64,000 nucleotides of DNA from Escherichia coli (lineage in GTDB: Bacteria; Pseudomonadota; Gammaproteobacteria; Enterobacterales; Enterobacteriaceae), in assembly GCF_044647545.1 (NCBI RefSeq), contig NZ_CP172818.1; one strand, written 5' to 3'. The notes below the pieces were generated by a model that had not been told where the DNA came from, ran no database searches, and saw only the letters and a list, made by a program, of their open reading frames with translations. Shown here in pieces: positions 539-49,773 of this stretch; position 1 is the stretch's first letter; the number at the start of each line of letters is the position of its first letter. Both the position numbers and the translations under genes were made by a program.

Positions 539-867
539 AACTGCATAAAAAAATAGAGTCTGTCGACATCCGCCAGACTCTACAGTACACACAGCAGTGC
601 ATCCGCGTCTTAAATCCGGCATGGTCTCCTCTGCGCCGGTGACTGTGTTATAACGGTTTTAACCTTTAGTTGCCAATTTTCTTCAGTGACAGATTTCACG
701 AAAATATAAGTTACATTATTAATATCGTGAATGAATAATCATGCATAAGCATTTTGCTTAAAATATCGGCAACATTTGGAACTTATTACTGGAAATTTGG
801 GTAATACGTTGTTGGACCAGCCCGGTCTGGTTATCATATCGCGCTCTTAATTGCGGGAGGATGTAAC

Positions 868-3922: not shown

Positions 3923-4111
3923 CAAAAGCAATTTCTCCGGGATTCTGTATACAAAAACGCCGTAAAGTTTGAGCGAAGTCAATAAACTCCCTACCTATTC
4001 AGGGCAATATCTCTCTCGCAGGTGAATGCAACGTCAAGCGATGGGCGTTGCGCTCCATATTGTCTTACTTCCTTTTTTGAATTACTGCATAGCACAATTG
4101 ATTCGTACGAC

Positions 4112-4139
4112 GCCGACTTTGATGAGTCGGCTTTTTTTT
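4112..4139 (+). terminator. Rho-independent terminator-like hairpin with T-run
   Basis: gccgactttgatgagtcggc followed by tttttttt. Confidence 0.5.
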
Positions 4140-8414: not shown

Positions 8415-8624
8415 TTAATTTGAATACAATGCAATTCTCGAGGACTGAAGTTTCTCGCAATTAAAATTTATCAGTTTTACTTTCTGCTCTCTGGAAACGC
8501 CTGCTTCTTTTTTACCTGAGAGCATTTTTTCGCATTCTGATTTCGTTAGTTTAGATTTTGAATATCTTGTCCAGTTAGTAGGAGTGCCACCTTCCTTTTC
8601 AATAGTGGCGGTAATTTTATACAT
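8415..8624 (-). CDS. ydaC: Rac prophage small protein YdaC
   Basis: ORF 8415..8696; likely start at internal ATG (MYKITATIEKEGG). Confidence 0.65.
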   Translation of the reverse strand: MYKITATIEKEGGTPTNWTRYSKSKLTKSECEKMLSGKKEAGVSREQKVKLINFNCEKLQSSRIALYSN

Positions 8625-9677: not shown

Positions 9678-12312
9678 TTGCATATTCCTTAGCCCAGCGG
9701 GGCAGTGATAATGTCTTAATAGCTGGCCATTCATCGGTATTCAGGCAGTCAGACAGGGTTCGCAGATTGCGGTGATATTCCTGTTGACCTGCCAGTTTTG
9801 CTTCTTCGCCCATCATGAAAATTTCAACCGGATAACGTCCGCATTCAATAGTTGTGCTGGCAACCAGAAAAACGAAAGTTGGCTGCACTCCAAACTGTGC
9901 TTCATAACCGTCACTGTAGAATGCATCCTGAACGTGATAGCGGTAGTCGTAATAAGCGGTTTTGAATCGTTGAATATCCGCCGTAGTTTTCACGTCCATG
10001 ATCCAGTGAAATTCAGGGATAATTTTGTCCGGACGGCACCGACACAAAATTCCTGTTTCAGGATCTTCCCAGTAAATTGATGATTCAGCGTGTCCGGCGC
10101 TTTCAACAAGCCATTGCCCCAGCGGCAAAGCCATAACGCTTTGATACATGAGTTCAATTTTCCGGCCTTCTTCCGCAGTGATAACCGTTTTTCCTGTGCT
10201 TGCGCATTCCATCAGAAACGCTTTCTCTTCTTCTTTTCCGGCGTTTGTACGGCGGTTAAATTCAGGTGCTACGATAAAGCGGTTACTGAATTCTTCCGGT
10301 TCAAGTACCCGGCAGTGGAAAGCAGTTCCTAAATCGAGCGTTTTTGTCTTTGTGGTGTCCACGGGGGCATTTTTACGCCACAAATATAGTGCCGGAGTAT
10401 CAGCAATGTCATCGAGCTGAGACTTACTGATACCGGGACCCGCGTGGTAATTCTCATTCGAAATTCCGTAATAAATACCTGGCTCTATGTCTTCTACGAT
10501 TAAGGGATCTGACGCCTCGCCAGTTTCACTATCGCTGGCATGATGCTGATTGCTGCCAGTGTTCTCCTTGTGCTGATGCGCAGTGCCTTCCATTTCCTCC
10601 AGATCATTTTTCTGAACTTCAGGCTGATTCTCTCCATCGAATATTTCCTGGTATGTTGCGTCACCCATCACCGCACCACAATCAGGGCAGTTGCCGCCAC
10701 CGCTCTGACCGCAGGCGGTGCAGATCTTTTCCGGTTCCTGTTGCACTACTGGTTCAGGTTGTTTCGTTTCTGGCTCGTTTTGTTGCGTATTTGGGCTGTT
10801 TTGTTCCGCTTTCTGGTCGTTCTGTTCCGTTTCTTGCTGGTTCTGGTTCACAGAATCGCGGGTCTGGATCCCCTTAATCCATTTCGGATCATTCGGGTCG
10901 CTAATCCCTTCAACAAATTCACCACGTGATACTGCAAGCAGTTCATCGTCATCGACAGGATTTTTTGATGGAATGTTTTTCCGGGCTTCATGGAGTTCTG
11001 CCCGCAGTTCCTGATATTTCGCATCAACAGAATTTACCTGTGACTGAGCATCCAGCGGCTGCGTGTCCTGATGATGTTCAGTTGCGTCCGGTTCCATTGT
11101 TTCAGCCTCTCCCTGTTCAACTGCCGTTGTTCCAGATGGTTGCGGTTTTTCTTCATCATCCTGTTTTCCTTCTTCTGTTACTCGCTGCGGCATCGGGGCA
11201 GAGGAGCGACCGCAGGCAATATCCACGATTTCCGGATCAGGGTTGGCATGATCGGTTTCAGTCAGTACTTTGTTCAGATATTCAGTGACGTGCGCGGGGA
11301 TGACCTCGATCCCAATTGGTGCTTCTTTTACGGACGCAACCACGATGGCGCGGGAATAATCCAGCCCGCCAGGCATGGTGATGAATTTGTCGCGGAAAAC
11401 AGAAAAGGGCGGTTTATTTTCAGCGATAATTTCCTCAATGCGTTTAGCGTGTGCCGGATGAAGGTTATAGATGTCCAGATCCATTGAACGGGCCAGTACG
11501 CCAGTGGCTACGTCGCGCGCCAGTGACGTCAGATCGTGTACGAAACCTTCGCCGCGATCGGTGAGGTTTCCGCCGCCAGCATTAGCACCGGAAGCCGTGC
11601 GAGTGATGTGTGAAACACGATTACCCTTCATCCACTCTTTTGTCAGCAGTCCTCGATCGGTGTAGTCAGCGTTCAGGTATGCTTCGAAAAAAGCAGTTAT
11701 CAGTCCCAGGTTTGAATTACCAGGATTAGGGAAAACTTTGTCAGTGTCACGAACCAGTTTGTGGAGTTCGCGAATTTCCAGCGGGTCGAGCAGGCTGGTT
11801 TTGTGGGAAACAGCCAGGGCAGTAACAGCCGGTAGTTCTTCAGCCCGAGCAATGTGTAATGCCTGGAGTCCGTCGCGTGAAACGTGCGTTACCGGTTTTT
11901 CGCTGCCGTGTTGAGCAAGCCAACGAATGGGCAGTTCCTGGCCAGAAATTGGGAGTAGCATATTCTCCTCAATCTCAGTCATGTCTTCGCCGTTGACGTT
12001 GGTATTGCCTTGATAGTGAGCGTTGTCTGGTGCTGCTCCCGGTTTTAGTTCCCATGTCATGGAGTCTTTGCTGAGTTGATAGCGTTCACTCCAGGTAAAA
12101 TCGATCTCACCTTCAGCGGGCAGGTCATTAACGACAGGAAAATTCGTGGCAACAGCTTTAAAATAGCTGCTCAGTTTTTTACCTGACTTAACGATCAGGT
12201 AGTCCAGAGTGGCACAGGTCGATTCAAAATCGTTGCTTGCCCACAGGACGACGTCAGGTTCACCGGATGATTTTTTCGCTTTCCGTAACAGGAAGAGTGG
12301 TTTTGTGCTCAT
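9670..12312 (-). CDS. recE: Exonuclease VIII RecE
   Basis: 880-aa ORF ending ...[11 protein letters not shown]; low-complexity acidic/Gln-rich middle region; overlaps recT start. Confidence 0.9.
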
Positions 12313-12413
12313 TGTTTTTTAACCTCAACTCAGATTAAAATTCGTTTTGTTCAGTGAATGATCTTGCCGGATACACACTGTTCATAGCCTGCGCCATACG
12401 CAGGCTATTTCTT

Positions 12414-12689
12414 TCAGATTTCACCTTTTAATTTCATTGCAATTAGAGTTGCCAGAAATTCGGCTTTTTTTTCTGCGGGCAGATTCTTTCCGATATGCAC
12501 CAGGCACATTTTTTTGACACCTTCATCAAGTGTTTTTACGTTGCCTGATGGACCATCGATATCAACCACAGTGAATGGGGTTTCTTTATTTTCTGTTTTA
12601 ATTACGTAGCCAATGCGCTTTCCTTCCAGATTCACCTCGTGAACAATGTCATCGGTAGTTACAACAGTGGCTTCATAATTGGTAATCAT
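12414..12689 (-). CDS. racC: Rac prophage protein RacC
   Basis: 91-aa product (MITNYEATVV...) within ORF 12414..12737. Confidence 0.8.
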   Translation of the reverse strand: MITNYEATVVTTDDIVHEVNLEGKRIGYVIKTENKETPFTVVDIDGPSGNVKTLDEGVKKMCLVHIGKNLPAEKKAEFLATLIAMKLKGEI

Positions 12690-12763
12690 GTTTTTCTCCT
12701 TAATTAAGGTTGAGCGAATACCTGCCATTTCTGGCATAAATTCAGTTTCGAATAGTCAATTAA

Positions 12764-12934
12764 TTAAAGTTCATGTGCCATCTGGTCTTTTTCGGCACAA
12801 GCTTCACTGCAATATTTTCTCGGTTCGTCTTTTGATAAAATCCCGTGCATGAAGTGAAGCATTCTTTCAATAGCTTTGCTTTCTTCAACGTCTTTTTTGC
12901 AAAGGTGGTAAGCACATTTTATTTTCTTAGTCAT
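12764..12934 (-). CDS. ydaE: Small Cys-rich zinc-ribbon-like protein (56 aa)
   Basis: Hand translation [56 protein letters not shown]; start overlaps kilR stop (TGATGA); not in ORF track (<60 aa). Confidence 0.7.
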   Translation of the reverse strand: MTKKIKCAYHLCKKDVEESKAIERMLHFMHGILSKDEPRKYCSEACAEKDQMAHEL

Positions 12935-13155
12935 CACCATGACTCCGCCTTTACAGGTAAACCATCACGACCGAGGAAGACTTTAATCATGCGGTCAGTA
13001 ATGAATGTTTTTGTGGTCAGGTTACGAATATATAGTTTTCGCTTTTTAATATTGTTTGCCGAGGCAATATATGTCCGGCCTTCATGAAGAACATAATCGC
13101 CAGGAGTCACACACTGACGTGGTATTTCATCAGTTCCGAAGTGATGTGCAATCAT
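12934..13155 (-). CDS. kilR: Cell division inhibitor KilR (FtsZ inhibitor)
   Basis: 73-aa product ([14 protein letters not shown]...) within ORF 12934..13167. Confidence 0.85.
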
Positions 13156-13596
13156 AATTATCTCCATTTTTACAAATGAACTTTGTTGATGCGGTGTCTG
13201 GTGCCTCCAGGTGACTGCAACCAGTTAACAATTACAGTCGGCTTTCCCACCCAAACCAATAAGGACTAACATGACTTTTAACTGTGCCACGTGCGCTTAG
13301 CCGCATTCACCGCATCACAAAATTCACTTTAAAAAGGGCGGACATCAGCCGAACTTCAAGAAAAAAACTGATGCCGCCAGGACTACACACAGCAATGTCG
13401 TTATTTACAACCGGAGGCGCACTCCCACCATTTAAATTTAACAGACAAGACCGACTCTTTATGGATATCGGAAATGCGCCTTCGTGTTGTGCCCGGTTTT
13501 ATTTCACCACCTCCGGGCTTCGGTGGTCTCGGCTATACCCCTACAGCGAGAGCTTGTGTTAACATTTCAATACCCTTACAGTTGAGAGTTATTGAT

Positions 13597-14085
13597 ATGT
13601 TGGATGTATTTACTCCATTGTTGAAACTTTTTGCTAACGAGCCACTCGAAAGACTTATGTATACGATTATCATTTTTGGTCTCACTCTCTGGCTGATACC
13701 GAAAGAGTTTACTGTCGCATTCAATGCTTATACTGAAATACCTTGGCTCTTTCAGATTATCGTTTTTGCCTTTTCTTTCGTGGTCGCCATTTCCTTCTCA
13801 AGATTGCGAGCACATATTCAAAAGCATTATTCATTACTACCAGAGCAACGAGTATTGCTTCGTTTATCTGAGAAAGAAATCGCTGTATTTAAAGATTTCC
13901 TTAAAACAGGAAATCTTATTATCACTTCTCCTTGCCGTAACCCGGTTATGAAAAAATTAGAACGGAAGGGCATCATTCAACATCAGAGTGATAGCGCAAA
14001 CTGTTCTTATTATCTCGTCACCGAAAAATACTCCCATTTTATGAAGTTATTCTGGAACAGCAGGAGTAGACGTTTTAATCGTTAG
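13597..14085 (+). CDS. sieB: Superinfection exclusion protein SieB
   Basis: 162-aa membrane protein from internal ATG (MLDVFTPLLK...) of ORF 13474..14085. Confidence 0.85.
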   Translation: MLDVFTPLLKLFANEPLERLMYTIIIFGLTLWLIPKEFTVAFNAYTEIPWLFQIIVFAFSFVVAISFSRLRAHIQKHYSLLPEQRVLLRLSEKEIAVFKDFLKTGNLIITSPCRNPVMKKLERKGIIQHQSDSANCSYYLVTEKYSHFMKLFWNSRSRRFNR

Positions 14086-14237
14086 CTTACTGTGTGCTTC
14101 TCCAACCATCGGCGCGCACCAGTTTCGGTTTTAAATGTTTTGCTTTTGGTATACGTCATGGCAGTGAACGTTCCATCCTGGTTGGGGAACACGCCGCACA
14201 CCAGGGATTCGTTGTTGCCGAGGTCGATTTTTTGCAT
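14082..14237 (-). CDS. ydaF: Small prophage protein (51 aa)
   Basis: Hand translation MQKIDLGNNESLVCGVFPNQDGTFTAMTYTKSKTFKTETGARRWLEKHTVS; stop overlaps sieB stop convergently. Confidence 0.55.
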   Translation of the reverse strand: MQKIDLGNNESLVCGVFPNQDGTFTAMTYTKSKTFKTETGARRWLEKHTVS

Positions 14238-14247
14238 TTTGCGAATC

Positions 14248-14382
14248 TCACATCTTGTTGCTACGTATAGCGACTTCTGCCTGCCAGAGATCCCAGTCGT
14301 TGCTGCGTAAAGCCTGCACAGCCTGGTTGTAAGTGATACCGCAACAATCCATCAAATACTGAACTACTTCGTAATGCACCAT
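14248..14382 (-). CDS. ydaG: Small prophage protein (44 aa)
   Basis: Hand translation MVHYEVVQYLMDCCGITYNQAVQALRSNDWDLWQAEVAIRSNKM. Confidence 0.55.
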   Translation of the reverse strand: MVHYEVVQYLMDCCGITYNQAVQALRSNDWDLWQAEVAIRSNKM

Positions 14383-14572
14383 CTTATCTCTCCCCTTAAC
14401 GCCGGGTGGCGGAACTAACTGCTGCACTGCAAAATTTGAATCCCGCCGTCATGTTCATACGCCTCGGGCTGGCTACTTAACCCCTTACCACTGCCTGGTA
14501 ACTCGAAGTATTGCCCGGCGTTCTGTGGGGCGGGGTGGGTGGTATGCTGGAACTATAGGTAATGCCTAATTG

Positions 14573-14596
14573 ATTGTCAATAGGCTATGCCTAATG
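14573..14596. promoter_or_regulatory. Operator-like 24-bp element distal to racR, inverted copy of 15219..15242
   Basis: attgtcaataggctatgcctaatg; 23/24 identical to reverse complement of 15219..15242; surrounded by extra GCCTAAT motifs. Confidence 0.4.
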
Positions 14597-14690
14597 TTTT
14601 GAGCGTAACCTAATAGGTGATGGCGACAGCAGAAAGTGATGGGGGGGTTAAATAACGGAATCCAGGAGTTTTCCGTCAGACCATATAAGT

Positions 14691-15167
14691 TTAAGTTCCA
14701 GTTTTTGTGATGTTCTGGCTTTTCCGTTCAGATTCAAGAGCTTTCAGATACTTACCCACTTTCATTTCCATCGCTGCTATGTAGGCGCGAACATCGTGGT
14801 CAACCCAATCTGGTTCTGTAGCATTTCCAGATAACAGGAAAGCTACAATCGCTCTTATTTCATCAGAGGCTGCTTGATAAAGGTTGTTTATATCTAAAAG
14901 TTCACTTTTTGTATCTGAATTGGTGGGGGTTGGTATGGGGTATTCGTTAAGCCCCCAATGCTCTGGACCAACAACATCAGAAAAGAAACGCCATAATTCT
15001 GGAAGTTTATCTTTACTTATAGAGCCTTTCTTAATCCAGTCATAAATTGATGGTGGTTGGACTTTAAAGTGGCGTGCGACCTCCGCCTTTGATTTGACGG
15101 ATCCCGATGCGATTTTTTTGTTAATGGCCTGCTCTATCGCTCGGCCTAAGTCTTTACCACTAAGCAT
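14691..15167 (-). CDS. racR: Prophage repressor RacR (CI-like)
   Basis: 158-aa ORF with N-terminal HTH-like region; divergent from ydaS. Confidence 0.9.
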   Translation of the reverse strand: MLSGKDLGRAIEQAINKKIASGSVKSKAEVARHFKVQPPSIYDWIKKGSISKDKLPELWRFFSDVVGPEHWGLNEYPIPTPTNSDTKSELLDINNLYQAASDEIRAIVAFLLSGNATEPDWVDHDVRAYIAAMEMKVGKYLKALESERKSQNITKTGT

Positions 15168-15218
15168 TGCTTAATATTCTCCTATGCGCATTACATTAGG
15201 CAATCCCTACCCTTACTG

Positions 15219-15242
15219 CATTAGGCACAGCCTATTGACAAT
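15219..15242. promoter_or_regulatory. Operator-like element in racR-ydaS divergent promoter region
   Basis: cattaggcacagcctattgacaat plus nearby palindrome ttaggcgtcgcctaa (15247..15261). Confidence 0.45.
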
Positions 15243-15290
15243 TGCGTTAGGCGTCGCCTAATATTTCTGTGTGTTTTTGGAGTTCATTCG

Positions 15291-15587
15291 ATGAAAAAAG
15301 AGAACTATTCATTCAAGCAAGCTTGTGCTGTTGTCGGTGGGCAATCAGCAATGGCTAGGCTTTTAGGTGTATCACCTCCAAGCGTAAATCAATGGATCAA
15401 AGGGGTACGTCAATTGCCTGCCGAGAGATGTCCAGCAATTGAACGTGCAACAAGAGGTGAGGTTCTGTGCGAAGAACTTCGTCCTGATATTGACTGGTCA
15501 TATTTACGACGTTCGGCATGTTGTTCGCAGAATATGTCAGTGAAGCAACTAAATGACAGTAACAAATCCTCATTTGATCATACCTGA
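15291..15587 (+). CDS. ydaS: Cro-like HTH protein YdaS
   Basis: 98 aa; HTH (QACAVVGGQSAMARLLGVSPPSVNQW). Confidence 0.88.
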   Translation: MKKENYSFKQACAVVGGQSAMARLLGVSPPSVNQWIKGVRQLPAERCPAIERATRGEVLCEELRPDIDWSYLRRSACCSQNMSVKQLNDSNKSSFDHT

Positions 15588-15609
15588 AACATCAAGAGGC
15601 AAATGATTC

Positions 15610-16032
15610 ATGAAAATCAAGCATGAGCACATCGAATCAGTGTTGTTTGCCCTAGCAGCCGAAAAAGGGCAGGCATGGGTAGCCAATGCAATTACTGAAG
15701 AATATCTGCGCCAGGGGGGCGGCGAATTGCCCCTGGTTCCAGGCAAGGACTGGAACAATCAGCAGAATATCTATCACCGTTGGTTGAAAGGTGAAACGAA
15801 AACGCAAAGAGAAAAAATTCAGAAGCTGATCCCAGCAATTCTGGCAATCCTTCCGCGCGAGCTGCGTCACCGACTCTGCATCTTCGATACCCTGGAACGC
15901 CGTGCATTACTGGCGGCGCAGGAAGCGTTAAGTACGGCAATTGATGCGCATGATGATGCAGTCCAAGCCGTTTACCGGAAAGCGCATTTCAGCGGCGGCG
16001 GTTCTTCCGACGATTCTGTCATTGTTCATTAA
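15610..16032 (+). CDS. ydaT: Rac prophage protein YdaT
   Basis: 140-aa ORF immediately downstream of ydaS. Confidence 0.88.
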   Translation: MKIKHEHIESVLFALAAEKGQAWVANAITEEYLRQGGGELPLVPGKDWNNQQNIYHRWLKGETKTQREKIQKLIPAILAILPRELRHRLCIFDTLERRALLAAQEALSTAIDAHDDAVQAVYRKAHFSGGGSSDDSVIVH

Positions 16033-16044
16033 GCAAAAGTTTCC

Positions 16045-16902
16045 ATGCTGTTTGTGCTTATTCTAAGCCACCGGGCAGCATCATACGGGGCAATTATGGC
16101 CGCATTACCATACATGCAACTGTACATAGCTGATTACCTGGCTGACACCATGCATTTGTCAGCAGAGGAGCATGGTGCGTATTTGTTGCTGATGTTCAAT
16201 TACTGGCAAACAGGAAAGCCAATACCTAAAAACAGGCTGGCAAAAATTGCCCGTCTGACTAACGAGCGATGGGCTGATGTTGAACCATCCTTGCAGGAGT
16301 TTTTTTGCGATAACGGCGAGGAATGGGTGCATCTTCGGATTGAGGAAGATCTGGCATCAGTCAGGGAAAAATTAACCAAAAAATCAGCCGCAGGAAAAGC
16401 ATCTGTTCAGGCCAGAAGAAGCAGAAAGGAAGCAGATGTTCAAACAAAACAAGAGAGAAATTTAACAGGTGTTCAAACAGATGTTGAAGTGGTGTTTGAA
16501 CATGATGTCAACACAAAGGCAACTAATAAAGATACAGATAAAGATCTAAAAACAGATCCCCCCCTAAATCCCCCCCGGGGGAATCGAGGTGTCAAAAAGT
16601 TTGACCCTCTGGATATTACTTTGCCGAACTGGATTTCTGTCTCGCTTTGGCGTGAGTGGGTTGAATTTCGCCAGGCATTGCGAAAACCGATTCGAACGGA
16701 GCAGGGCGCTAACGGGGCGATACGGGAGCTGGAAAAATTCCGCCAGCAGGGTTTTTCACCTGAGCAGGTGATTCGACACAGCATCGCCAATGAATACCAG
16801 GGCTTGTTCGCGCCGAAAGGTGTTCGACCTGAGACGTTACTCCGACAGGTTAACACCGTCTCGTTACCGGATAGTGCGATCCCGCCAGGCTTCAGGGGGT
16901 AA
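16045..16902 (+). CDS. ydaU: Replication initiation protein (lambda O-like role), YdaU
   Basis: 285 aa; internal iteron-like repeats and AT-rich segment in mid-gene. Confidence 0.8.
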   Translation: MLFVLILSHRAASYGAIMAALPYMQLYIADYLADTMHLSAEEHGAYLLLMFNYWQTGKPIPKNRLAKIARLTNERWADVEPSLQEFFCDNGEEWVHLRIEEDLASVREKLTKKSAAGKASVQARRSRKEADVQTKQERNLTGVQTDVEVVFEHDVNTKATNKDTDKDLKTDPPLNPPRGNRGVKKFDPLDITLPNWISVSLWREWVEFRQALRKPIRTEQGANGAIRELEKFRQQGFSPEQVIRHSIANEYQGLFAPKGVRPETLLRQVNTVSLPDSAIPPGFRG

Positions 16903-16908
16903 CTGACC

Positions 16909-17655
16909 ATGAAAAATATTGCGACAGGCGATGTTCTTGAACGTATCCGCAGACTGGCCCCGTCACATGTAACCGCGCCATTCAAGACGGTAGCGGAGTG
17001 GCGCGAGTGGCAACTTTCCGAAGGCCAGAAACGTTGTGAGGAGATCAACCGTCAGAATCGTCAGTTGCGGGTGGAAAAAATTCTGAATCGCTCTGGCATC
17101 CAGCCATTGCACCGCAAATGCTCGTTTTCGAATTACCAGGTGCAGAACGAAGGGCAGCGATACGCGTTGAGTCAGGCGAAATCCATCGCTGATGAACTGA
17201 TGACCGGGTGTACAAATTTTGCGTTCAGCGGAAAACCTGGTACCGGGAAGAACCACTTAGCGGCAGCTATCGGGAATCGCCTGCTGAAAGACGGTCAGAC
17301 AGTGATTGTGGTTACCGTGGCTGATGTTATGAGTGCCCTGCACGCCAGCTATGACGATGGGCAGTCAGGCGAAAAATTTTTGCGGGAACTGTGCGAAGTG
17401 GATCTGCTGGTTCTTGATGAAATTGGCATTCAGCGCGAGACGAAAAACGAGCAGGTGGTACTGCACCAGATTGTTGATCGCCGGACAGCGTCGATGCGCA
17501 GCGTGGGGATGCTGACAAACCTGAACTATGAGGCCATGAAAACATTGCTCGGCGAGCGGATTATGGATCGCATGACCATGAACGGCGGGCGATGGGTGAA
17601 TTTTAACTGGGAGAGCTGGCGTCCGAATGTCGTCCAGCCAGGAATTGCGAAGTAA
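16909..17655 (+). CDS. ydaV: DnaC-like helicase loader YdaV
   Basis: 248 aa; Walker [16 protein letters not shown], Walker B LLVLDEIG. Confidence 0.88.
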
Positions 17656-17677
17656 TTTTTACCGGGAGAAAAATTTA

Positions 17678-18199
17678 ATGGAGACTGTTTTTGACGCACT
17701 GAAAGCAATGGGAAAAGCCACATCCATAGAACTTGCTGCGCGACTTGATATCAGTCGTGAAGAAGTGCTGAACGAACTATGGGAACTGAAAAAGGCTGGT
17801 TTTGTTGATAAAAGCGCGTACACCTGGCGTGTGGCTGATAACAATGTTCAGCAGGAACAGCCAGCGCAGGCAGAACTGCCGGAAGAAATCACCACAGCAA
17901 CAGTAGCGAAAATCTCAGAGTGCGATTTAACCGCGACGATTGAACAACGAGGACCACAAACGGCTGATGAGCTGGCTACATTGTTTGGTACCACATCACG
18001 CAAAGTGGCTTCAACGCTGGCAATGGCAATCAGCAAAGGTCGTCTGATTCGCGTAAATCAGGGCGGTAAATTTCGTTACTGCATACCGGGCGATAATTTA
18101 CCAGCAGAGCCGAAAGCAGCATCGGTATCTCCGCTCTGGTTATCTGCATCATCGTCTGCCTGTCATGGGCTGTTAATCATTACCGTGATAACGCCATGA
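17678..18199 (+). CDS. ydaW: Putative winged-helix DNA-binding protein YdaW (possibly remnant)
   Basis: ATG with gggag SD at 17678; 3' end overlaps Rz-like frame. Confidence 0.5.
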
Positions 18200-18570
18200 C
18201 CTACAAAGAGCAGCGCGATAAAAAAGTCAGTGAGCTGAAGCAGGCGACTGCCACCATTACTGACATGCAGCAGCGCCAGCGTACTGCTGATGCACTTGAT
18301 GCTAAATACACGAAGGAGTTAGCTGATGCGAAAGCTGAAAATGATGCTCTGCGTGATGATGTTGCCGCTGGTCGTCGTCGGTTGCACATCAAAGCAGTCT
18401 GTCAGTCAGTGCGTGAAGCCACCACCGCCTCCGGCGTGGATAATGCAGCCTCCCCCCGACTGGCAGACACCGCTGAACGGGATTATTTCACCCTCCGGGA
18501 ACGACTGGTAATGATGCAGGCCCAACTTGAAGGTGCTCAGCAATACATAACCGAGCAGTGTTTAAAGTAA
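18100..18570 (+). pseudogene. rzpR: Rz-like i-spanin remnant (no ATG at the lambda-Rz-equivalent N-terminus)
   Basis: Frame encoding ...[36 protein letters not shown]... resembles lambda Rz; ORF track lists only 18196..18570. Confidence 0.65.
18326..18511 (+). CDS. rzoR: Rz1-like o-spanin lipoprotein, embedded in rzpR in +1 frame
   Basis: 61 aa; lipobox LVVVGC; proline-rich ([15 protein letters not shown]). Confidence 0.7.
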
Positions 18571-18707
18571 AATCTTAACTACAATATGATTCATTTTGAT
18601 GATTGTTTCATAAGGAACAGTGAAGTAAGATCTAAGAGGAGTTAAATTTTATACAGTATAATCATAATATTGCAGCAAGGTGGTTATAATTGAAAGAATA
18701 TTTAGAT

Positions 18708-20165
18708 ATGAATACATCTCATGTAAGAGTTGTTACTCATATGTGTGGGTTCCTGGTTTGGCTCTATAGTCTTTCAATGTTGCCACCAATGGTTGTAGCA
18801 TTGTTTTATAAAGAAAAAAGCCTGTTTGTTTTCTTTATAACTTTCGTTATATTTTTTTGCATTGGTGGCGGAGCGTGGTATACAACTAAGAAATCTGGCA
18901 TTCAATTACGTACCCGTGATGGGTTTATTATAATTGTAATGTTTTGGATTTTGTTTTCTGTTATTAGTGCATTCCCTTTATGGATTGACTCAGAACTTAA
19001 TTTAACGTTCATTGATGCTCTGTTTGAAGGGGTTTCTGGAATAACAACAACAGGAGCAACTGTAATTGATGATGTTAGTTCATTACCTCGGGCATATTTG
19101 TACTATCGGTCACAGTTAAATTTTATAGGTGGTTTAGGAGTTATTGTTCTGGCGGTTGCTGTATTGCCATTATTGGGTATTGGTGGTGCAAAGCTTTATC
19201 AGTCAGAAATGCCGGGGCCATTTAAGGATGACAAACTCACTCCCCGCCTGGCCGATACGTCACGGACACTGTGGATAACTTATTCTTTATTAGGTATTGC
19301 TTGTATTGTCTGTTATAGACTTGCAGGAATGCCTTTGTTTGATGCTATTTGTCACGGGATTTCCACAGTTTCGCTTGGTGGTTTCTCAACTCATAGCGAG
19401 AGTATCGGATATTTTAATAACTATTTGGTTGAGCTGGTGGCTGGTTCTTTTTCCCTGCTATCGGCTTTCAACTTCACTCTTTGGTATATTGTTATTAGCA
19501 GGAAAACGATAAAACCTTTAATCAGAGATATTGAACTTCGTTTCTTTCTGTTAATAGCCTTAGGGGTGATCATTGTTACCTCTTTCCAGGTCTGGCATAT
19601 AGGTATGTATGACTTGCATGGAAGTTTTATTCATTCGTTTTTTCTTGCCAGCTCCATGCTCACTGATAATGGTTTAGCTACGCAGGATTATGCAAGTTGG
19701 CCCACGCACACGATAGTGTTTTTGCTGTTGTCAAGTTTCTTTGGGGGATGTATAGGTTCAACTTGTGGTGGAATTAAGTCACTTCGATTTCTTATACTTT
19801 TCAAACAAAGCAAACACGAGATAAATCAGCTTTCTCATCCCAGAGCGTTGTTGAGTGTAAATGTAGGAGGGAAGATAGTTACAGATCGTGTAATGAGGTC
19901 TGTATGGAGTTTCTTTTTTCTTTATACTCTCTTCACGGTGTTTTTTATACTGGTGTTAAATGGTATGGGATATGATTTTCTTACATCATTTGCAACAGTG
20001 GCTGCATGTATTAATAATATGGGATTAGGTTTTGGGGCTACTGCATCGTCATTCGGAGTGCTTAATGACATTGCAAAATGCTTAATGTGCATAGCTATGA
20101 TTCTTGGTCGCCTTGAAATTTATCCTGTTATTATATTGTTTTCAGGTTTTTTTTGGCGCTCCTAA
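18708..20165 (+). CDS. trkG: Potassium uptake protein TrkG (TrkH paralog)
   Basis: 485 aa from internal ATG (MNTSHVRV); multi-pass membrane protein; AT-rich. Confidence 0.9.
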   Translation: MNTSHVRVVTHMCGFLVWLYSLSMLPPMVVALFYKEKSLFVFFITFVIFFCIGGGAWYTTKKSGIQLRTRDGFIIIVMFWILFSVISAFPLWIDSELNLTFIDALFEGVSGITTTGATVIDDVSSLPRAYLYYRSQLNFIGGLGVIVLAVAVLPLLGIGGAKLYQSEMPGPFKDDKLTPRLADTSRTLWITYSLLGIACIVCYRLAGMPLFDAICHGISTVSLGGFSTHSESIGYFNNYLVELVAGSFSLLSAFNFTLWYIVISRKTIKPLIRDIELRFFLLIALGVIIVTSFQVWHIGMYDLHGSFIHSFFLASSMLTDNGLATQDYASWPTHTIVFLLLSSFFGGCIGSTCGGIKSLRFLILFKQSKHEINQLSHPRALLSVNVGGKIVTDRVMRSVWSFFFLYTLFTVFFILVLNGMGYDFLTSFATVAACINNMGLGFGATASSFGVLNDIAKCLMCIAMILGRLEIYPVIILFSGFFWRS

Positions 20166-20302
20166 TATATGGCTGATTTATAATTGTGAGTTTAATATTA
20201 TGTTGACTCACTCATTGATCCAATACCTAACTTTACCAGCAACACCTCCGTCCCCAGTAGCACTGGCTGCTGGGGTGCGTTTTATTCATAAAGCAAGGCT
20301 GT

Positions 20303-20566
20303 ATGAGCGAGAAATTAAAGATAGTCTATCGCCCATTACAAGAATTGTCACCGTATGCGCACAACGCCAGGACGCACAGTACTGAGCAGGTGGCACAACT
20401 GGTAGAAAGTATTAAGCAATTCGGCTGGACTAATCCGGTGCTGATTGACGAAAAGGGCGAAATTATTGCGGGTCACGGTCGTGTTATGGCGGCTGAAATG
20501 CTCAAAATGGATTCTGTTCCGGTCATTGTTCTGTCTGGCCTGACGGATGAGCAGAAGCAGCGATAA
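20303..20566 (+). CDS. ynaK: ParB-like nuclease-domain fragment protein YnaK
   Basis: 87 aa with ParB N-terminal-like motif (GHGRVMAA). Confidence 0.75.
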   Translation: MSEKLKIVYRPLQELSPYAHNARTHSTEQVAQLVESIKQFGWTNPVLIDEKGEIIAGHGRVMAAEMLKMDSVPVIVLSGLTDEQKQR

Positions 20567-20906
20567 CGATCAGTATCGCTCCCGTAATGCATTAATCCGT
20601 CGCCACATTGAGAAAATGGATGCCAGTTTGCACGTCGGAACGAAGGAGTTTGATATTTCAAAGGTTTCCGAGGTGGATTCTGTTGATGATTTACTCATTG
20701 ATAATGCCGCTCGTTATCTGCTGAAAGACTGGAAAGGGGTTGGTGAACTGGTTAATGGTGTTGAGGTTGCACTGGAATATACGGCAGAACGAGGGATCGC
20801 GCTGCTTAAGCAGAATCCAGAGTTGTACTGGCAGATCCTTGCAGAAGCAGCCAGCATCGCCCAGGGTAAAGAGCAGCAGAAGCAGGATACGATAAAAAAG
20901 CCATAG
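20547..20906 (+). pseudogene. ydaY: Prophage gene remnant YdaY
   Basis: 119-aa ORF overlapping ynaK end; no recognisable complete domain. Confidence 0.5.
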
Positions 20907-20980
20907 CTGCCCAGCGGTGGTTATCGGAGTTCGGGGGAGAAAGGGGGGAAAAGGCAAGATGGAAGCGAGAAAAACTCAGG

Positions 20981-21214
20981 TTGCCACCGATACCGGAACC
21001 AGAAATAGACCCGGTGCTTAAGGAGTTGTTGTACGCCTATTCGGTAATATCCCGTGCCCGACGTTATGCTGGAATGGCTGGGGTGCCTTTGCCTTTATCT
21101 CTGACAGAGATAAATGAATATTTAGCCACTCATCCGGTATTGATTGAGCGCGATGAATTTGAAGCAGTGATCTTTGCACTGGATGACCAGTATTTTCAGG
21201 AGCAGTGTGTGTAG
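20981..21214 (+). CDS. Phage-related small ORF, possible tail-assembly fragment (uncertain)
   Basis: 77-aa ORF immediately upstream of tape-measure fragment. Confidence 0.3.
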   Translation: MPPIPEPEIDPVLKELLYAYSVISRARRYAGMAGVPLPLSLTEINEYLATHPVLIERDEFEAVIFALDDQYFQEQCV

Positions 21215-21379
21215 TTGTTAATTACGTACACTCTGTTACAGAGATGTGATGGTGTCTTTAATTAAATCGATGATGCTCCTGGAGAAAAGCATTGCGTGGC
21301 CTCGTAATCGCTATATCTACTATTATGTCGCCTGAAACCCACTTCGCGGTGGGTTTTTTGTTGTCAGGAGTTTTAATAA

Positions 21380-22408
21380 ATGGCAGAGCAAACCTCGCGT
21401 CTCGCAATAATTATTGATAGCACTGGAGCGAAAAATAATGCTGACAATCTGACCTCCTCATTAGTCAAAATGACGCAGGCTGGGGAAACTGCTGCAAATA
21501 GCGCAGGGAAAGTGACTAAGGCAACAGAAGATGAGAAGAACGCGCTCGCAAAATTAAAAGCAGCTATTGATCCAGTTGGTGCCGCAATTGATACTGTCGG
21601 TCGACGCTATTCTGAATTAAAGAAATTTTTCGATAAAGGGCTTATTGATAAAGAAGAATATGAATTTCTTGTCCGTAAACTTAATGAAACCACAGAGGAA
21701 TTGAGCGGGGTTGCGCAAGCGCAGAGAGAAGCCGAGAAGGCCGGAAAACTTGCTGCCGCTCAGCAGGAAGCGCAGGCTCAGGCCTTTCAAAGAATGCTGG
21801 ACAAGATCGACCCTCTGGCTGCGGCGCTAAGAAATCTTGAACAACAGCATGATGAACTTAATGCTGCGTTTGCATCCGGGAAAATAAATGGTTCTCAGTT
21901 TGAGAATTATAGCCGAAAAATACAGGAAACACGGCGAGAGCTTACCGGAGAGGCTCAGGCAGAGCGAGAAGCAGCAAAAGCGCATGATGAACAGGTTGTT
22001 GCTTTGCAACGTCTGATTGCTCAACTTGATCCTGTCGGAACTGCTTTTAATCGTCTGGTAGAACAACAGAAACAGCTCAATGAAGCAAAAGCTAAGGGGA
22101 TGCTTTCTCCTGAAATGTATGAGGAGCTTTCTGGAAAACTTCGTGCTATGCGGAGTGAGCTTGAGGTTACTCAATCACAATTAAGCAAAACCGGAATGTC
22201 GGCAAAACAAACGGCTTTTGCTATGCGCATGTTGCCTGCACAAATGACGGATATTGTTGTTGGGTTGTCCACTGGTCAGTCGCCATTTATGGTGTTAATG
22301 CAGCAGGGCGGCCATTCAGCTATGCAGGAGACAAGAATCGCCAGCTTACCCGTTACAGCGATACCCGCTGGCATGAAGATTCAGTGCGTAACCGCTGGTT
22401 CAGCATGA
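21380..22408 (+). pseudogene. tmpR: Tail tape-measure protein, N-terminal fragment
   Basis: 342-aa coiled-coil-rich ORF typical of tape-measure N-termini; far too short for a full TMP. Confidence 0.7.
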
Positions 22409-22524: not shown

Positions 22525-23720
<1,196 letters not shown>

Positions 23721-27340: not shown

Positions 27341-27915
27341 TGGCATTCAGAATGAGTGAACAATCACGTACCGTAAAAATTTATAACCTGCTGGCCGGAA
27401 CTAATGAGTTTATTGGTGAAGGTGACGCATATATTCCACCTCATACAGGGCTGCCAGCTAATTCTACAGATATCGCCCCACCGGAAATTCCTGCTGGCTT
27501 TGTGGCAGTTTTTAACAGTGAAAATGAATCGTGGAATATTGTTGAAGACCATCGTGGTAAAACGGTCTATGACGTGGCGTCGGGGGACGCATTGTTTATT
27601 TCTGAACTCGGACCGCTACCAGAGAATGTCACCTGGTTGTCGCCAGCAGGGGAGTATCAGAAGTGGGACGGCGTATCCTGGGTGAATGATGAGGAAGCAG
27701 AAAAACTGTTTCGGATACGGGAAGCGGAAGAAAGAAAAAGCAACCTGATGCAGGTAGCCAGTGAGCATATTGCGCCGCTTCAGGATGCTGCAGATCTGGA
27801 AATTGCAACGGAGGAAGAAACCCCGTTGCTGGAAGCATGGAAAAAGTATCGGGTATTGCTGAACCGTGTTGATACGTCAACTGCACAGGATATTGAATGG
27901 CCAGCACTGCCGTAG
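27340..27915 (+). CDS. tfaR: Tail fiber assembly protein
   Basis: 191-aa ORF start-overlapping stfR stop; Tfa-like. Confidence 0.85.
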
Positions 27916-31820: not shown

Positions 31821-32047
31821 TGAATAAATCCTTTAGTTATTTTATTTGCCTTTTATCCCCATTTCGGGGAGTGAAAACATCCTAAAGGAGAAGTTCAGTT
31901 AGCCGATAAATATCATTTGTTACGCCTTAAGTAAAACCTTAATCAAATAATTCTACGGAAATGATAATAAGTTTGGTGAATATATTGTTGGCGACATATA
32001 CAAAATAAAAATTATACATTTAAATAGTGATGCGTTATTCTTCGCGG

Positions 32048-32152
32048 GTTATATGCCTTTATTGTCACAAAGATTATTTTCTGTTGGACCCTTGTTACTG
32101 TTTATCCAACAAATAATGAGACAAGCCCGAACAGTCGTCCGGGCTTTTTTTT
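32048..32152 (+). ncRNA. micC: MicC-like small regulatory RNA
   Basis: 5' gttatatgcctttattgtcaca matches recalled MicC seed; ends in hairpin cccgaacagtcgtccggg + T-run (32125..32150). Confidence 0.7.
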
Positions 32153-32180
32153 AGAATTGGATAATCCTTATCCAGAGCAT

Positions 32181-42435: not shown

Positions 42436-43932
42436 GTGATGACAGAGCCGCATGTAGCAGTATTAAGCCAGGTCCAACAGTTTCTCGATCGTCAACACGG
42501 TCTTTATATTGATGGTCGTCCTGGCCCCGCACAAAGTGAAAAACGGTTGGCGATCTTTGATCCGGCCACCGGGCAAGAAATTGCGTCTACTGCTGATGCC
42601 AACGAAGCGGATGTAGATAACGCAGTCATGTCTGCCTGGCGGGCCTTTGTCTCGCGTCGCTGGGCCGGGCGATTACCCGCAGAGCGTGAACGTATTCTGC
42701 TACGTTTTGCTGATCTGGTGGAGCAGCACAGTGAGGAGCTGGCGCAACTGGAAACCCTGGAGCAAGGCAAGTCAATTGCCATTTCCCGTGCTTTTGAAGT
42801 GGGCTGTACGCTGAACTGGATGCGTTATACCGCCGGGTTAACGACCAAAATCGCGGGTAAAACGCTGGACTTGTCGATTCCCTTACCCCAGGGGGCGCGT
42901 TATCAGGCCTGGACGCGTAAAGAGCCGGTTGGCGTAGTGGCGGGAATTGTGCCATGGAACTTTCCGTTGATGATTGGTATGTGGAAGGTGATGCCAGCAC
43001 TGGCAGCAGGCTGTTCAATCGTGATTAAGCCTTCGGAAACCACGCCACTGACGATGTTGCGCGTGGCGGAACTGGCCAGCGAGGCTGGTATCCCTGATGG
43101 CGTTTTTAATGTCGTCACCGGGTCAGGTGCTGTATGCGGCGCGGCCCTGACGTCACATCCTCATGTTGCGAAAATCAGTTTTACCGGTTCAACCGCGACG
43201 GGAAAAGGTATTGCCAGAACTGCTGCTGATCACTTAACGCGTGTAACGCTGGAACTGGGCGGTAAAAACCCGGCAATTGTATTAAAAGATGCTGATCCGC
43301 AATGGGTTATTGAAGGCTTGATGACCGGAAGCTTCCTGAATCAAGGGCAAGTATGCGCCGCCAGTTCGCGAATTTATATTGAAGCGCCGTTGTTTGACAC
43401 GCTGGTTAGTGGATTTGAGCAGGCGGTAAAATCGTTGCAAGTGGGACCGGGGATGTCACCTGTTGCACAGATTAACCCTTTGGTTTCTCGTGCGCACTGC
43501 GACAAAGTGTGTTCATTCCTCGACGATGCGCAGGCACAGCAAGCAGAGCTGATTCGCGGGTCGAATGGACCACCAGAGGTATTATGTTGCGCCAACGCTA
43601 GTGCGGTAAAATCCCGATGCTAAATTGCGCTTAACTCGTGAAGAGGTGTTTGGTCCGGTGGTAAACCTGGTGCGAGTAAGCGGTGGAAGAGGCGTTACAA
43701 CTGGCAAACGACACGGAATATGGCTTAACTGCCAGTGTCTGGACGCAAAATCTCTCCAGGCTCTGGAATATAGCGATCGCTTACAGGCAGGGACGGTGTG
43801 GGTAAACAGCCATACCTTGATTGACGCTAACTACCGTTTGGTGGGATGAAGCAGTCAGGAACGGGCCGTGATTTTGGCCCCGACTGGCTGGACGGTTGGT
43901 GTGAAACTAAGTCGGTGTGTGTACGGTATTAA
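42436..43932 (+). pseudogene. feaB: Phenylacetaldehyde dehydrogenase, 3' part frame-disrupted here
   Basis: Aldehyde dehydrogenase ORF stops at 43623 (395 aa); homologous sequence continues in another frame (43625..43849). Confidence 0.75.
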
Positions 43933-43952
43933 TATTGGTTCGCTAATTAAGT

Positions 43953-43979
43953 AAAAAACGGCACCTGGTGCCGTTTTTT
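43953..43979. terminator. Bidirectional rho-independent terminator between convergent feaB and tynA
   Basis: aaaaaacggcacctggtgccgtttttt (A-run, hairpin, T-run). Confidence 0.55.
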
Positions 43980-43991
43980 GTCTGAAAACAA

Positions 43992-46266
43992 TCACTTATC
44001 TTTCTTCAGCGCCCCTAGCGTTGGCGTTTCATAAAGAAGTTCCATGGTTTAAGCAGAGTATGTACCCATTCGGTCGGCATAATCGGCCACTCTTCAGCAC
44101 GGGCCACATGTGTGGTGCCGGTGGGTCATCCAGACAACGGCGTCGGTGTTGTCCAGCGACTCGTTATCTTTACTGTATTGTCCAAGACCGGTGTCATCAG
44201 TAGAACGGTTCAGGATATTTGCCTTCCGGGAAACGCTCGCCAGGATGATAACGCGTTACCCAGAAAGCTGCTTTGTCCATAAAGCTTAAACGATGATAGA
44301 TCCACTCATCCCAGGCGCCACTGGGCACCTTTTGCTACCGGGTGAGTACCGCCTGCATAAGGAATAATTTGATAGGAAACTGGATTGCCCATGCGGTTCT
44401 CTTTGTTGCGGGTTACTCAACAGACGAATCATGCCCCGGATCAAACTACGGCATCCTGTTCATTGCCGATGTTGTACTGATTAACTTGCATCAAGGTACT
44501 GGTGCGTCGGCCACCGGCAGTATTCGGTTTCCACTGGGTCCATCGCCACCAGGCTGTTATTCTCGCCATCTACATAAGGAATCGAGGCAGAAATTATCGA
44601 TCTGTTTGGTGTCAGTACCCACGATACTGTGATCGATAAGCGTGCCGTAGCGCGTGTCATCTTTCGCCGTCTCATCGTGCATGGTTTTCGCTTTAACACC
44701 TTTCACCGCTTCGATGCCCGTAGCACCGGCATCAATGCCAATAGTGCCGTTTTCATGGAAGATCCAGTCAAAATGTAGTCATAGTTACCCACTGTACTGA
44801 TCCAGCGCACCACTGACTCCCAGCATTCAGGTACTGACGTTGGGCTGGCCCATTTCCTGATGCTTATACTCCGGCCCGGCATAACGTTTCAAATACCGCG
44901 ATAGCGCGAGGATCTCCATCGGCACGCCAGTGTAGTCGGCGATGGTTTCATTAAGGAGCACTGCGTTAGACGGGGCATCTTTACCACGGCGAAATTGGTG
45001 AGGTTAGCGTGCCCATACCGTAGTCACCAGAGTCCAGATACGCTTTAAAGTACCAGCCAATATCCAGGATCACCGTAAGGCACAATAATGTCGCCGAGGA
45101 GAACCTTCGTGCATGACTTTGCGTTTGGTGCCGATATTGGTATATAGTCACGGTGGAGATCATAGGCCCGACGCGAGAGTTCATGCTGAGGTGAAAATCC
45201 CAGTTCCGCCAGTGAATAGTATCTCGCCAGTAATGGTGTAATTTTTACCTTCAGGCTCAATGATTTGCATAGGCTTGACTGCCGGAGCAACGCGGTCACG
45301 GCTATCAAATGGGCGTGCGGTCATTCACACGGAACTCCGGACCTTCTTCAATCTTAACGATTTTTTTCTGTTTCTGATCAACGACCGCCACCAGGTTTTC
45401 GATGGGATGTGCCCAGTAGTTCCATCGCCGACAGTCAAGATAGCTGATGACTTTGAGCAACCGGGCATCTTGTTTCAGGCCATCTTTACCATCGAAATAA
45501 CCTACGGTCAGCGGCGTGGTAATCACTTTTTTCGCATCAGTAATACCGCGTTTCTTCACGGCAGCGGCAAATTCTTCACTGTTGTTAATAATGTTCTGCA
45601 CACTGGCGAAATCATCCAGCAACACCATACCCGTGGCGTGTTTAATGGGTTCCAGGAGAGCAGTTTGTTGTTTTGCAGATCCACCACCGCTTCGATGATA
45701 TGTTTGCCGTCGAGCATAATGACGTCGGCTTTGCGCGGCTGGTCAACCGGTTTGTTTTCCAGCGCAAACGCCCAGACAGCTTCTTTATCTGGCGGTAGCA
45801 GGAGATCTCAGTAAAACAGGGTATTGGGTTTGAAGTCCCGCGGAAGCTTTAACAATTTCAACGGCCTGTTTAATTTCGTACCACAGTTCACGCATTAAGT
45901 GGGTGAGGGCGCTTTTATTACCTGAAAGGTTTGATCCAGACCGGACTGGAAAACATCGTTAATAAAGGTGTCGCAAAACCCAGGCCTTATTGTCTTTCAT
46001 ACGCTCCCGGCACTTGCAGTGCCAAGGTAGCCATTAACAATTGCTGTTTTGCGCACCAGGCTTCACTTTCACGTACGCGCCATCTTTAATCAGGGTAAAG
46101 ATCTGGGCGTAGTCGTCCCACTGCACATCGGCACCAAATTCTTTAAGCGTTTCATCCATTGGCACCATATGCGCTTCACCACCGTGGGCAAATACCGGCG
46201 CTTGCCAGGCGAAACTTAAGGCGACTGCCAACGCCAGGGTTGTTTTACGGGCAGAATCCGGAGAAA
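43992..46266 (-). pseudogene. tynA: Copper amine oxidase, heavily frame-disrupted here
   Basis: C-terminus GALKKDK at 43992; recognisable TynA-like fragments in ORFs 44481..44699, 44981..45184, 45305..45628, 46034..46315 in different frames. Confidence 0.7.
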
Positions 46267-46525
46267 GAGGGCTTCCAGTTATTAACCTCGTCAGATGTTG
46301 TGTTCTTGTTAGCAACCGCGCTCTGTGGGCGGTTTAGTCAGGTTCACATTATGAGTACTGATGCAAAGAAATCCTGCACCTCAGAGTTATTTGGCAGGTG
46401 TGCCCACTTTTTCATACAGTGGGTGCCCTGAAAATCAATGTACACATCATGCATAATGTGACAACGTCACAAAAGTTAGTGAAATGAAAAAGGGCAACTG
46501 TTCGGGCCGTTGCCCTTCATTCACC

Positions 46526-48563: not shown

Positions 48564-48796
48564 CGCTACTCTCCAGATGTTTCACATTTATGTTGCTAAT
48601 AGTTAAATTGCGAATCATAAAAAGCAAGGGTTCTTTTAACGAAATGTTAACTATGCAAATATGTATCACAACTGCGGAAAACATTAATGCACTGATAAAT
48701 AATGATTTATAAAAAATCGGGTGCGAAATCCGTCACAGTTCAAGCATACAAAATTTGTGATTTTAGTTAACCATTGTGTAACTTTCATAAACAATG

Positions 48797-48834
48797 TGAT
48801 TCGTGTTTTTAATTAATTCGCGAACTTGGAATCG
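48797..48834. promoter_or_regulatory. PaaX-operator-like inverted repeat in paaZ-paaA divergent promoter region
   Basis: TGATTC ... GAATCG half-sites ~26 nt apart. Confidence 0.35.
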
Positions 48835-48846
48835 TAAAGGTAATAA

Positions 48847-49773
48847 CATAACCCAAGAAGAACGCTTTGAGCAACGGATAGCCCAGGAAACGGCTATCGA
48901 GCCGCAGGACTGGATGCCAATAAGAAAGCACTGATCCGCCAGATTGGGCAGCATGCACACTGCAAATTGTGGTATGTTCCTGAAGGTAACTGGATCACTG
49001 GCGCACGACCTTTTGCAGCATAAAGCCATTCTGTTCGCCAAAGTCCAGGATGAAGCCGGTCATCGTCTGTATCTCTATAGCGCCGCCGAAACACTGGGCT
49101 GCACAGAGAAGACATCTACCAAAAAATGCTCAAACAACGATAAATATTCCTCCATCTTTAATTATCCGACATTGGTCTCCAGGGGCTGATATCGGCGTTA
49201 TCGGCTGGCTGGTGGAGTAGCAGCGATCGTCAATCAGGTGGCGTTATGTCGCACTTCTTATGGCCCGTATGCCAGAGCAATGGTGAAGATCTGCAAAGAA
49301 GAGAGTTTTTCACCAGCGTCAGGGGTTTGAAGCCTGCATGGCACTGGCGCAGGCGGCGAAGGACGCTCAAAAGCAGATGTTGCAAGACGCCATTAACCGT
49401 TTCTGGTGGCCAGCCTTAATGATGTTCGGGCCAAACGATGATAACTCGCCAAACAGCGCCAGAAGTACCGCCTGGAAAATCAAACGTTTCACCAACGACG
49501 AACTCGCCAGCGTTTCGTGGATAACACCATTCCACAGGTTGAAATGCTCGGTATGACCGTTCCTGACCCGGATCTGCATTTTGACACTGAAAGCGGTCAC
49601 TACCGCTTTGGTGGAAATCAACTGGCAGGAGTTTAACGAAGTAATTAACGGTCGCCGGAATTTGTAATCAGGAGAGGCTCGACGCCAAACGTAAAGCCTG
49701 GGAAGAAGGTACCTGGGTACGGGAAGCAGCGCTGGCCCATGCACAAAAACAACTTGCCCGTAAGGTCGCATAA
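48847..49773 (+). pseudogene. paaA: PaaA-like monooxygenase subunit, frame-disrupted, no ATG at expected start
   Basis: Frame begins ata-acc-caa (ITQEERFEQRIAQETAIEPQDW) then stops; later fragment in ORF 49338..49556. Confidence 0.65.

Follow-up and report, generated by a model that had tools for sequence, protein, structure and literature searches.

The closest described systems to the locus examined here are the spanin genes of phage lambda and those of the lambdoid prophages of Escherichia coli. In lambda, residues 1-24 of the i-spanin Rz form its membrane anchor, and lysis fails when the Rz start codon is lost (M1K) (PMC5295617). The o-spanin gene Rz1 is nested within Rz in the +1 frame, and the next gene downstream is bor. 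The cryptic prophage Rac of E. coli K-12 has the same kind of nesting, with rzoR inside rzpR, and this arrangement has been discussed previously (PMC9431181). The MG1655 annotation lists ydaW (b1361), rzpR (b1362, pseudogene), rzoR (b4528), and trkG (b1363) in this region and labels the product of rzoR, which is nested in rzpR, as a 'putative prophage outer membrane lipoprotein'. DLP12 (essD-rrrD-rzpD/rzoD) is likewise a lambdoid cryptic prophage of K-12 with nested Rz and Rz1 genes, and its RzoD is nearly identical to RzoR. Mentions of the Rac lysis deletion in the literature searched were incidental, and no dedicated published account of it was found.

Undeleted relatives of Rac are available for comparison. 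The prophage of E. coli APEC 102026 (NZ_CP087290), which occupies the same ttcA attachment site, is essentially complete at about 54 kb and was used as the comparator. Phage vB_EcoS-666R9 (ON470614.1) and related ON4706xx records contain Q, S, R, Rz, trkG, a ParB-like gene, and terminase; the phage database thus includes complete Rac-type phages that bring trkG along as a cargo gene. Records of this type carry the K-12 rzpR allele at 99.8% identity.

Identity of the locus and its features

The window, meaning the whole 64-kb stretch of E. coli DNA that was analyzed, is colinear with positions 1,405,112-1,469,089 of E. coli K-12 MG1655. Its Rac element spans approximately 6.8-29.9 kb, is integrated at ttcA, and has an intR to pinR gene order colinear with that of K-12, including the same internal deletion junctions. 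The stretch 17678-18570 is the ydaW/rzpR/rzoR part of this cryptic prophage (Table 1). Locus, gene order, and junction are the same as in K-12, with 100% identity over 111 bp around the junction and an identical RzoR protein. Two reading frames differ in length. The truncated ydaW gene (ydaW') encodes 186 aa in K-12 versus 173 aa in the window, where substitutions have moved the stop codon, and the annotated Rz-frame ORF comprises 99 aa in K-12 versus 124 aa in the window, where it begins at an ATG at Rz codon 31.

We conclude, with a probability of roughly 0.93, that the locus is what remains, in inactive form, of the lambdoid Rac prophage's lysis cassette after a deletion of about 11.4 kb. 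A chance origin of the feature is excluded, since the homologies have E values of 1e-19 to 1e-50.

Table 1. Coordinates of the features at the ydaW'/Rz junction and in its surroundings (window positions)
Feature	Position	Strand	Basis
ydaW' fusion ORF, 173 aa, ATG 17678, stop TGA 18197-18199	17678..18199	+	Pfam DUF1627, tblastn
Deletion junction, 2-bp 'TA' common to both parental sequences	18126..18127	.	BLAST versus intact Rac, three-way junction display
Rz remnant, codons 8-154, equivalent to K-12 rzpR pseudogene	18127..18570	+	PF03245, DNA alignment, no canonical start
124-aa ORF, Rz residues 31-154	18196..18570	+	First canonical start in Rz frame
Foreign Rz allele patch, 25 substitutions versus K-12 rzpR	18198..18303	+	Identity to P22-like prophage Rz
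AAGGAG Shine-Dalgarno sequence for Rz1/rzoR	18313..18318	+	7 nt before ATG
Rz1/rzoR, o-spanin lipoprotein, 61 aa, intact	18326..18511	+	PF06085, E = 2e-19
trkG, potassium transporter, phage cargo	18708..20165	+	Rz-trkG adjacency in intact Rac and phage

The deletion between ydaW and Rz

In the comparator, the left part of Rac contains intR, xisR, ralR, recT, recE, kilR, sieB, and racR, followed by ydaS, ydaT, ydaU, ydaV, and a full-length 253-aa homologue of ydaW (DUF1627). Beyond this homologue lie genes for DUF977, several hypothetical proteins, DUF1367, DUF1364, and DUF1133, then tolA-like fragments, essD (holin), rrrD (lysozyme), a 154-aa Rz, and trkG, with the terminase, head, and tail genes downstream of trkG. 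A BLAST comparison aligned window positions 10825-18127 to comparator segment 8810-16117 and window positions 18126-19151 to comparator segment 27476-28501, with identities of 98.4% on the left flank and 97.6-98.8% on the right flank. The comparator segment 16118-27477, amounting to 11,360 bp, is absent from the window; this size and the corresponding gene content are relative to a single comparator, and the true ancestor may have differed. The left breakpoint falls after codon 150 of the 253-codon ydaW homologue and the right breakpoint at Rz codon 7/8.

The missing segment carries the C-terminus of the ydaW homologue, the nin-like genes, a Q-like gene, a holin of the essD type, the lysozyme gene rrrD, and codons 1-7 of Rz. 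The DUF1133 protein encoded in this segment is 98% identical to the antitermination protein Q annotated in phage vB_EcoS-666R9. Both this phage and the APEC 102026 prophage share with the window the ydaS-T-U-V operon, the Rz/Rz1-trkG-ynaK block, and the ttcA integration site, but they retain the 11.4 kb between ydaW and Rz, with its nin-like genes, Q, holin, and endolysin, as well as the head and tail genes, all of which the window lacks.

The same breakpoints emerged from a larger collection of genomes. Among 5,426 complete E. coli genomes, matches to the full-length ydaW homologue (DUF1627) end at 18127 and matches to Rz begin at 18126. The ydaW'/Rz junction was present in 336-339 of these genomes, and those that were sampled were K-12, K-12 derivatives, or O16:H48 isolates, all 100% identical around the join. 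The undeleted rrrD-Rz-trkG arrangement was found in 718 genomes of the set and in phage records. The initial annotation had proposed that the locus is a deletion scar that fused the remains of a lysis cassette to an upstream gene, and an undeleted Rac from the same ttcA site, when compared directly, bears this out. Its left limit of 18100 has to be corrected, since the feature begins with the start of ydaW at 17678 and the junction lies at 18127|18128.

The loss of the lysis genes extends to the entire window. Using tblastn at E ≤ 0.1, the 64-kb window gave no match to holins (EssD/class II, lambda S), to endolysins (RrrD lysozyme, lambda R), or to the Rac Q-like antiterminator, and none of these genes is listed in the colinear MG1655 annotation of Rac. 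The claim that the element contains neither gene was therefore correct, and no homologue turned up elsewhere in the window either. The remnant does not lie within a holin/endolysin cassette under late-gene control; in intact Rac those genes are located in the deleted 11.4 kb. DLP12, by comparison, keeps its holin, its lysozyme, and a full-length 153-aa RzpD with a start codon.

Only the 2-bp sequence 'TA' is shared at the join, which therefore points to illegitimate recombination and not to homologous exchange. The order Q, S, R, Rz, trkG in phage vB_EcoS-666R9 indicates that the linkage of Rz with trkG is ancestral. We infer that codon 150 of the early-operon gene ydaW (DUF1627) came to be joined to codon 8 of Rz in one step, through an illegitimate-recombination deletion that spanned about 11.4 kb and had a microhomology of 2 bp. 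Along with the nin-like genes, this one event would have taken out Q and the late-promoter region, both the holin and the endolysin, and the beginning of Rz from its start codon through codon 7. Alternatively, the deletion may be of multi-step origin.

Two further internal deletions of Rac were observed. At 20555-20556, ynaK is joined to ydaY and the genes from terminase through tail tube are gone (about 11.6 kb), and at 22313-22314, the tape-measure gene is joined to lom (about 9.8 kb gone). In addition, an IS5 element at 22527-23720 is inserted in lomR. Relative to APEC 102026, the second and third deletions are common to the window and K-12, as is the IS5 insertion, so that the two share all three internal deletions. 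The K-12 YnaK protein (87 aa) is a fragment of a 263-aa ParB-like protein found in phage vB_EcoS-666R9.

Allele patch and sequence quality

The Rz DNA was aligned with the Rz genes of K-12, intact Rac, lambda, and a P22-like prophage. The window differs from K-12 by 27 substitutions, all located in 18151-18303, and no other difference was found in 10945-22382. Two of the substitutions, at 18151 and 18170, lie outside the patch listed in Table 1. The patch comprises 106 bp, matches the Rz allele carried by a P22-like prophage of strain WCHEC050613 at 100% identity, and creates the ATG at 18196. Beyond the patch, the first donor-specific difference comes at 18351; here the base in the window is that of K-12.

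The patch may be a short-tract gene conversion from a co-resident lambdoid Rz or a consensus artefact, and we assign roughly even odds to the two. In the case of an artefact, the patch, and with it the ATG at 18196 and its ATGA overlap with the stop codon of ydaW', would stem from a K-12-templated or paralogue-contaminated consensus assembly. Several features of the window are in line with such an origin. Blocks with zero differences from MG1655 alternate with blocks of 1.5-3% divergence, and the IS5 and IS2 sites are common to K-12. The region 43.5-53 kb, which in K-12 contains feaB, tynA, paaZ, and paaA-E, shows about 170 indel events and only four ORFs of at least 150 aa. The hybrid Rz allele adjoining trkG occurred in 0 of the 5,426 complete genomes, while BHUCD02, a K-12-sized WGS chromosome, has a different patch from a third allele at the same spot. 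The patch also falls within a stretch where the donor-type allele can still be aligned to K-12. Against an artefact, the donor allele is genuine and natural, and true gene conversion over a short tract, with a co-resident lambdoid Rz as donor, would leave the same pattern. Whatever the origin of the patch, the main conclusion is unaffected because the junction itself is present in the MG1655 reference.

As such, the region 43500-53000 has the appearance of a consensus that is reference-templated or of low quality, or alternatively of extreme gene decay.

Reading frames left at the scar

The initial annotation had spoken of an orphaned spanin pair. This term claims too much, as only the o-spanin gene Rz1/rzoR is intact and the i-spanin gene has lost its start codon and three anchor residues. 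The embedded lipoprotein gene was found as described, entirely inside the Rz remnant and in the +1 frame, (18326-18196) mod 3 being 1. Its product has the features of an o-spanin lipoprotein, namely a signal peptide, the lipobox LVVVGC with Cys20, a further cysteine (Cys29), and a proline-rich PPPPP stretch. The protein is also 100% identical to Rz1 of intact Rac and matches lambda Rz1 at 57/60 of the latter's residues. Aligned with lambda Rz/Rz1, the DNA of the locus is approximately 93% identical over much of the gene, and the likeness extends to the anchor, coiled-coil, lipobox, penta-proline, and cysteine features. The window differs from lambda in that Rz codons 1-7 with the start are missing, no S, R, Q, or pR' lies upstream, and the downstream gene is trkG in place of bor.

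The intact rzoR could have been kept by selection, either because the host has domesticated it as a lipoprotein of the outer membrane or because other lambdoid phages and prophages can use it as a spare o-spanin. No damage is seen in its ORF, ribosome-binding site, lipobox, or Cys29, all of which are identical to those of the version in functional phages, and a MALDI study attributed one mass peak to RzoR following eugenol stress (PMC6115441), a claim of induction that we counted against the decay reading. However, the sampled junction-bearing genomes belong to a single recent lineage whose members are 100% identical around the join, and the intactness of rzoR therefore needs no selection. The exact Rz1 sequence carries the names RzoD or RzoR on more than 1000 contigs, and because RzoR and the RzoD of other prophages have identical or almost identical sequences, proteomics or ribosome profiling cannot assign a signal to the rzoR locus; this includes the signals of K-12 rzoR, which are inseparable from those of rzoD. 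In addition, an o-spanin alone has no known activity. Selection on rzoR is accordingly improbable. Under the decay reading, rzoR has an intact ORF and ribosome-binding site but would receive no partner subunit from its own element, and the remnant is probably not expressed or not functional.

Upstream of the junction, codons 1-150 of YdaW' correspond to the N-terminal part of the 253-aa DUF1627 phage protein, and in the last 23 codons (151-173) the membrane-anchor region of Rz is read out of frame. The claim that ydaW ends in another frame while overlapping Rz was confirmed: the overlap with Rz-derived DNA is 72 nt, and the Rz frame is +2 relative to ydaW'. YdaW' is not full-length, as it covers only positions 1-64 of the 155 in the DUF1627 profile (PF07789), while the intact homologue covers 1-155; likewise, tblastn with the full-length 253-aa protein covered only residues 1-151 in the window, and PGAP labels ydaW 'incomplete, missing C-terminus'. 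The out-of-frame tail is moderately hydrophobic, with a maximum 17-residue hydropathy of 1.63. In the literature, K-12 YdaW sometimes figures as a transcription factor whose function is unknown and whose length depends on the strain (PMC9308461), and overexpressed K-12 ydaW blocks a retron toxin (bioRxiv 10.1101/2020.06.22.160242). The length difference between strains arises because the protein is truncated and takes its last residues from Rz read out of frame. The YdaW of K-12 should thus be regarded as a truncated DUF1627 protein that ends in out-of-frame Rz residues.

No intrinsic terminator was predicted on the + strand from ydaV to trkG. Transcription of rzoR would most likely be read-through from the RacR-repressed early operon (ydaS-T-U-V-W'). 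No Rfam family reached the gathering score in the 17.6-18.7 kb region. Gathering-score hits elsewhere in the window were the RalA antitoxin sRNA at 8440-8618 (+), IS009 at 27683-27881 (+), FnrS at 4018-4135 (+), McaS at 545-640 (-), and MicC at 32045-32160 (+).

A more speculative and rather unlikely view is that the scar has been co-opted, with rzoR and possibly trkG placed immediately behind the RacR-repressed operon and no terminator intervening, YdaW' acting as a functional short regulator, and RzoR being a stress-induced lipoprotein of the outer membrane under the control of RacR. In a weaker form, the remnant may be a live recombination partner that trades Rz sequence with incoming lambdoid phages, provided that the patch is real.

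Exchange between elements might also be invoked for the junction itself, which would then be a recombination joint linking the early region of Rac to late-region sequence from another lambdoid element. Lambdoid prophages are mosaic, and the Rz coding region does show allele patches from other phages. Nevertheless, a single intact prophage, integrated at the same attachment site, contains both flanks in the same orientation with 11.4 kb between them, and a homology of 2 bp at the join does not fit homologous exchange, which makes such a joint very unlikely.

The remaining part of the scar is the Rz remnant. The Rz-like coiled-coil frame reported by the initial annotation is open from 18097 to its stop codon at 18568-18570 and matches Pfam PF03245 (Phage_lysis) with E = 3.5e-50 over profile positions 1-125 of 126. 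The remnant shares 92% identity with residues 8-154 of Rz from intact Rac, is uninterrupted, and keeps the periplasmic coiled-coil domain with Cys99 and Cys152. Pseudogene decay was rejected as the source of the differences between K-12 rzpR and lambda, the K-12 gene being 99.8% identical to Rz of Rac-like phages with a complete lysis cassette. What has been deleted is the start codon with codons 1-7. The lambda-type Rz start (MSRVTAI or MNRVTAI) is not present, and between the upstream stop codon (18094) and the ATG at 18196 the frame contains no ATG, GTG, or TTG, only ATC and CTG codons. The absence of an ATG at the lambda-type start was thus rightly noted, and no canonical start upstream of 18196 could take its place. 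This first canonical start corresponds to Rz codon 31 and lies beyond the membrane anchor, and consequently no translatable N-terminal anchor, comprising a start codon and residues 1-24, was found in the remnant.

The 124-aa ORF that begins at 18196 has no Shine-Dalgarno sequence and no hydrophobic segment, its maximum 17-residue hydropathy being 0.36 versus 2.88 for full Rz. Since the ATG overlaps the stop codon of ydaW' (ATGA), this ORF might conceivably be translated to some extent by coupled re-initiation. The protein made from it would be a periplasmic domain located in the cytoplasm. A membrane-anchored i-spanin could thus presumably not be made, and at most a cytoplasmic 124-aa fragment from ATG 18196 would be expected.

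The available annotations conflict on this point. On the K-12 sequence, PGAP models a 149-aa 'lysis protein' (WP_024262039.1) with an ATC start equivalent to window position 18121, as seen in the ER1709 annotation, while the MG1655 curators class rzpR as a pseudogene. The PGAP model was counted against the decay reading, since the ATC start, if used, would yield a protein in which most of the membrane anchor is preserved. In E. coli, translation initiates very weakly at ATC and CTG codons. A programmed frameshift from ydaW' into Rz was rejected, as no slippery heptamer was visible around 18100-18130. That the remnant is a working i-spanin, translated from ATC 18121/18127 or CTG 18136 or by a frameshift fusion to YdaW', so that the spanin pair would be complete, is the least credible of the alternatives, for although the frame is open from 18097, 16-18 hydrophobic anchor residues are left, and PGAP annotates such an ATC-start CDS in K-12 derivatives, the best upstream Shine-Dalgarno match is 4/6 with poor spacing, inspection revealed no slippery heptamer near the junction, the MG1655 curators treat rzpR as a pseudogene, and a spanin without a holin and an endolysin has no role in lysis.

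The gene downstream of the remnant is the phage cargo gene trkG. It has a GC content of 38% versus about 52% in the flanking phage genes. The intergenic region between Rz and trkG (18571-18707) comprises 137 bp with 25.5% GC, and the low GC of the gene and of this region is typical of horizontally acquired cargo. A weak sigma-70-like match was observed at 18561-18590. Rz and trkG are adjacent in intact Rac, in phage vB_EcoS-666R9, and in 718 genomes. trkG is among the best-conserved Rac genes (PMC5700373), and a small island of trkG and spanin sequence between two deletions fits with this conservation. The remnant therefore probably survives by hitch-hiking, owing to its position 137 bp upstream of the host-useful trkG.

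The scar is a known and already annotated case of ordinary prophage decay in the defective Rac of K-12-type strains. The present analysis adds the exact breakpoints, shows how large the deletion is and what it contained when measured against intact Rac, identifies the microhomology of 2 bp at the join, and attaches a caveat to the allele patch. As it stands, the Rac element in the window would be unable to lyse its host. The scar shows how Rac lost host lysis, with Q, the holin, the endolysin, and the Rz start removed and the host-useful trkG kept.
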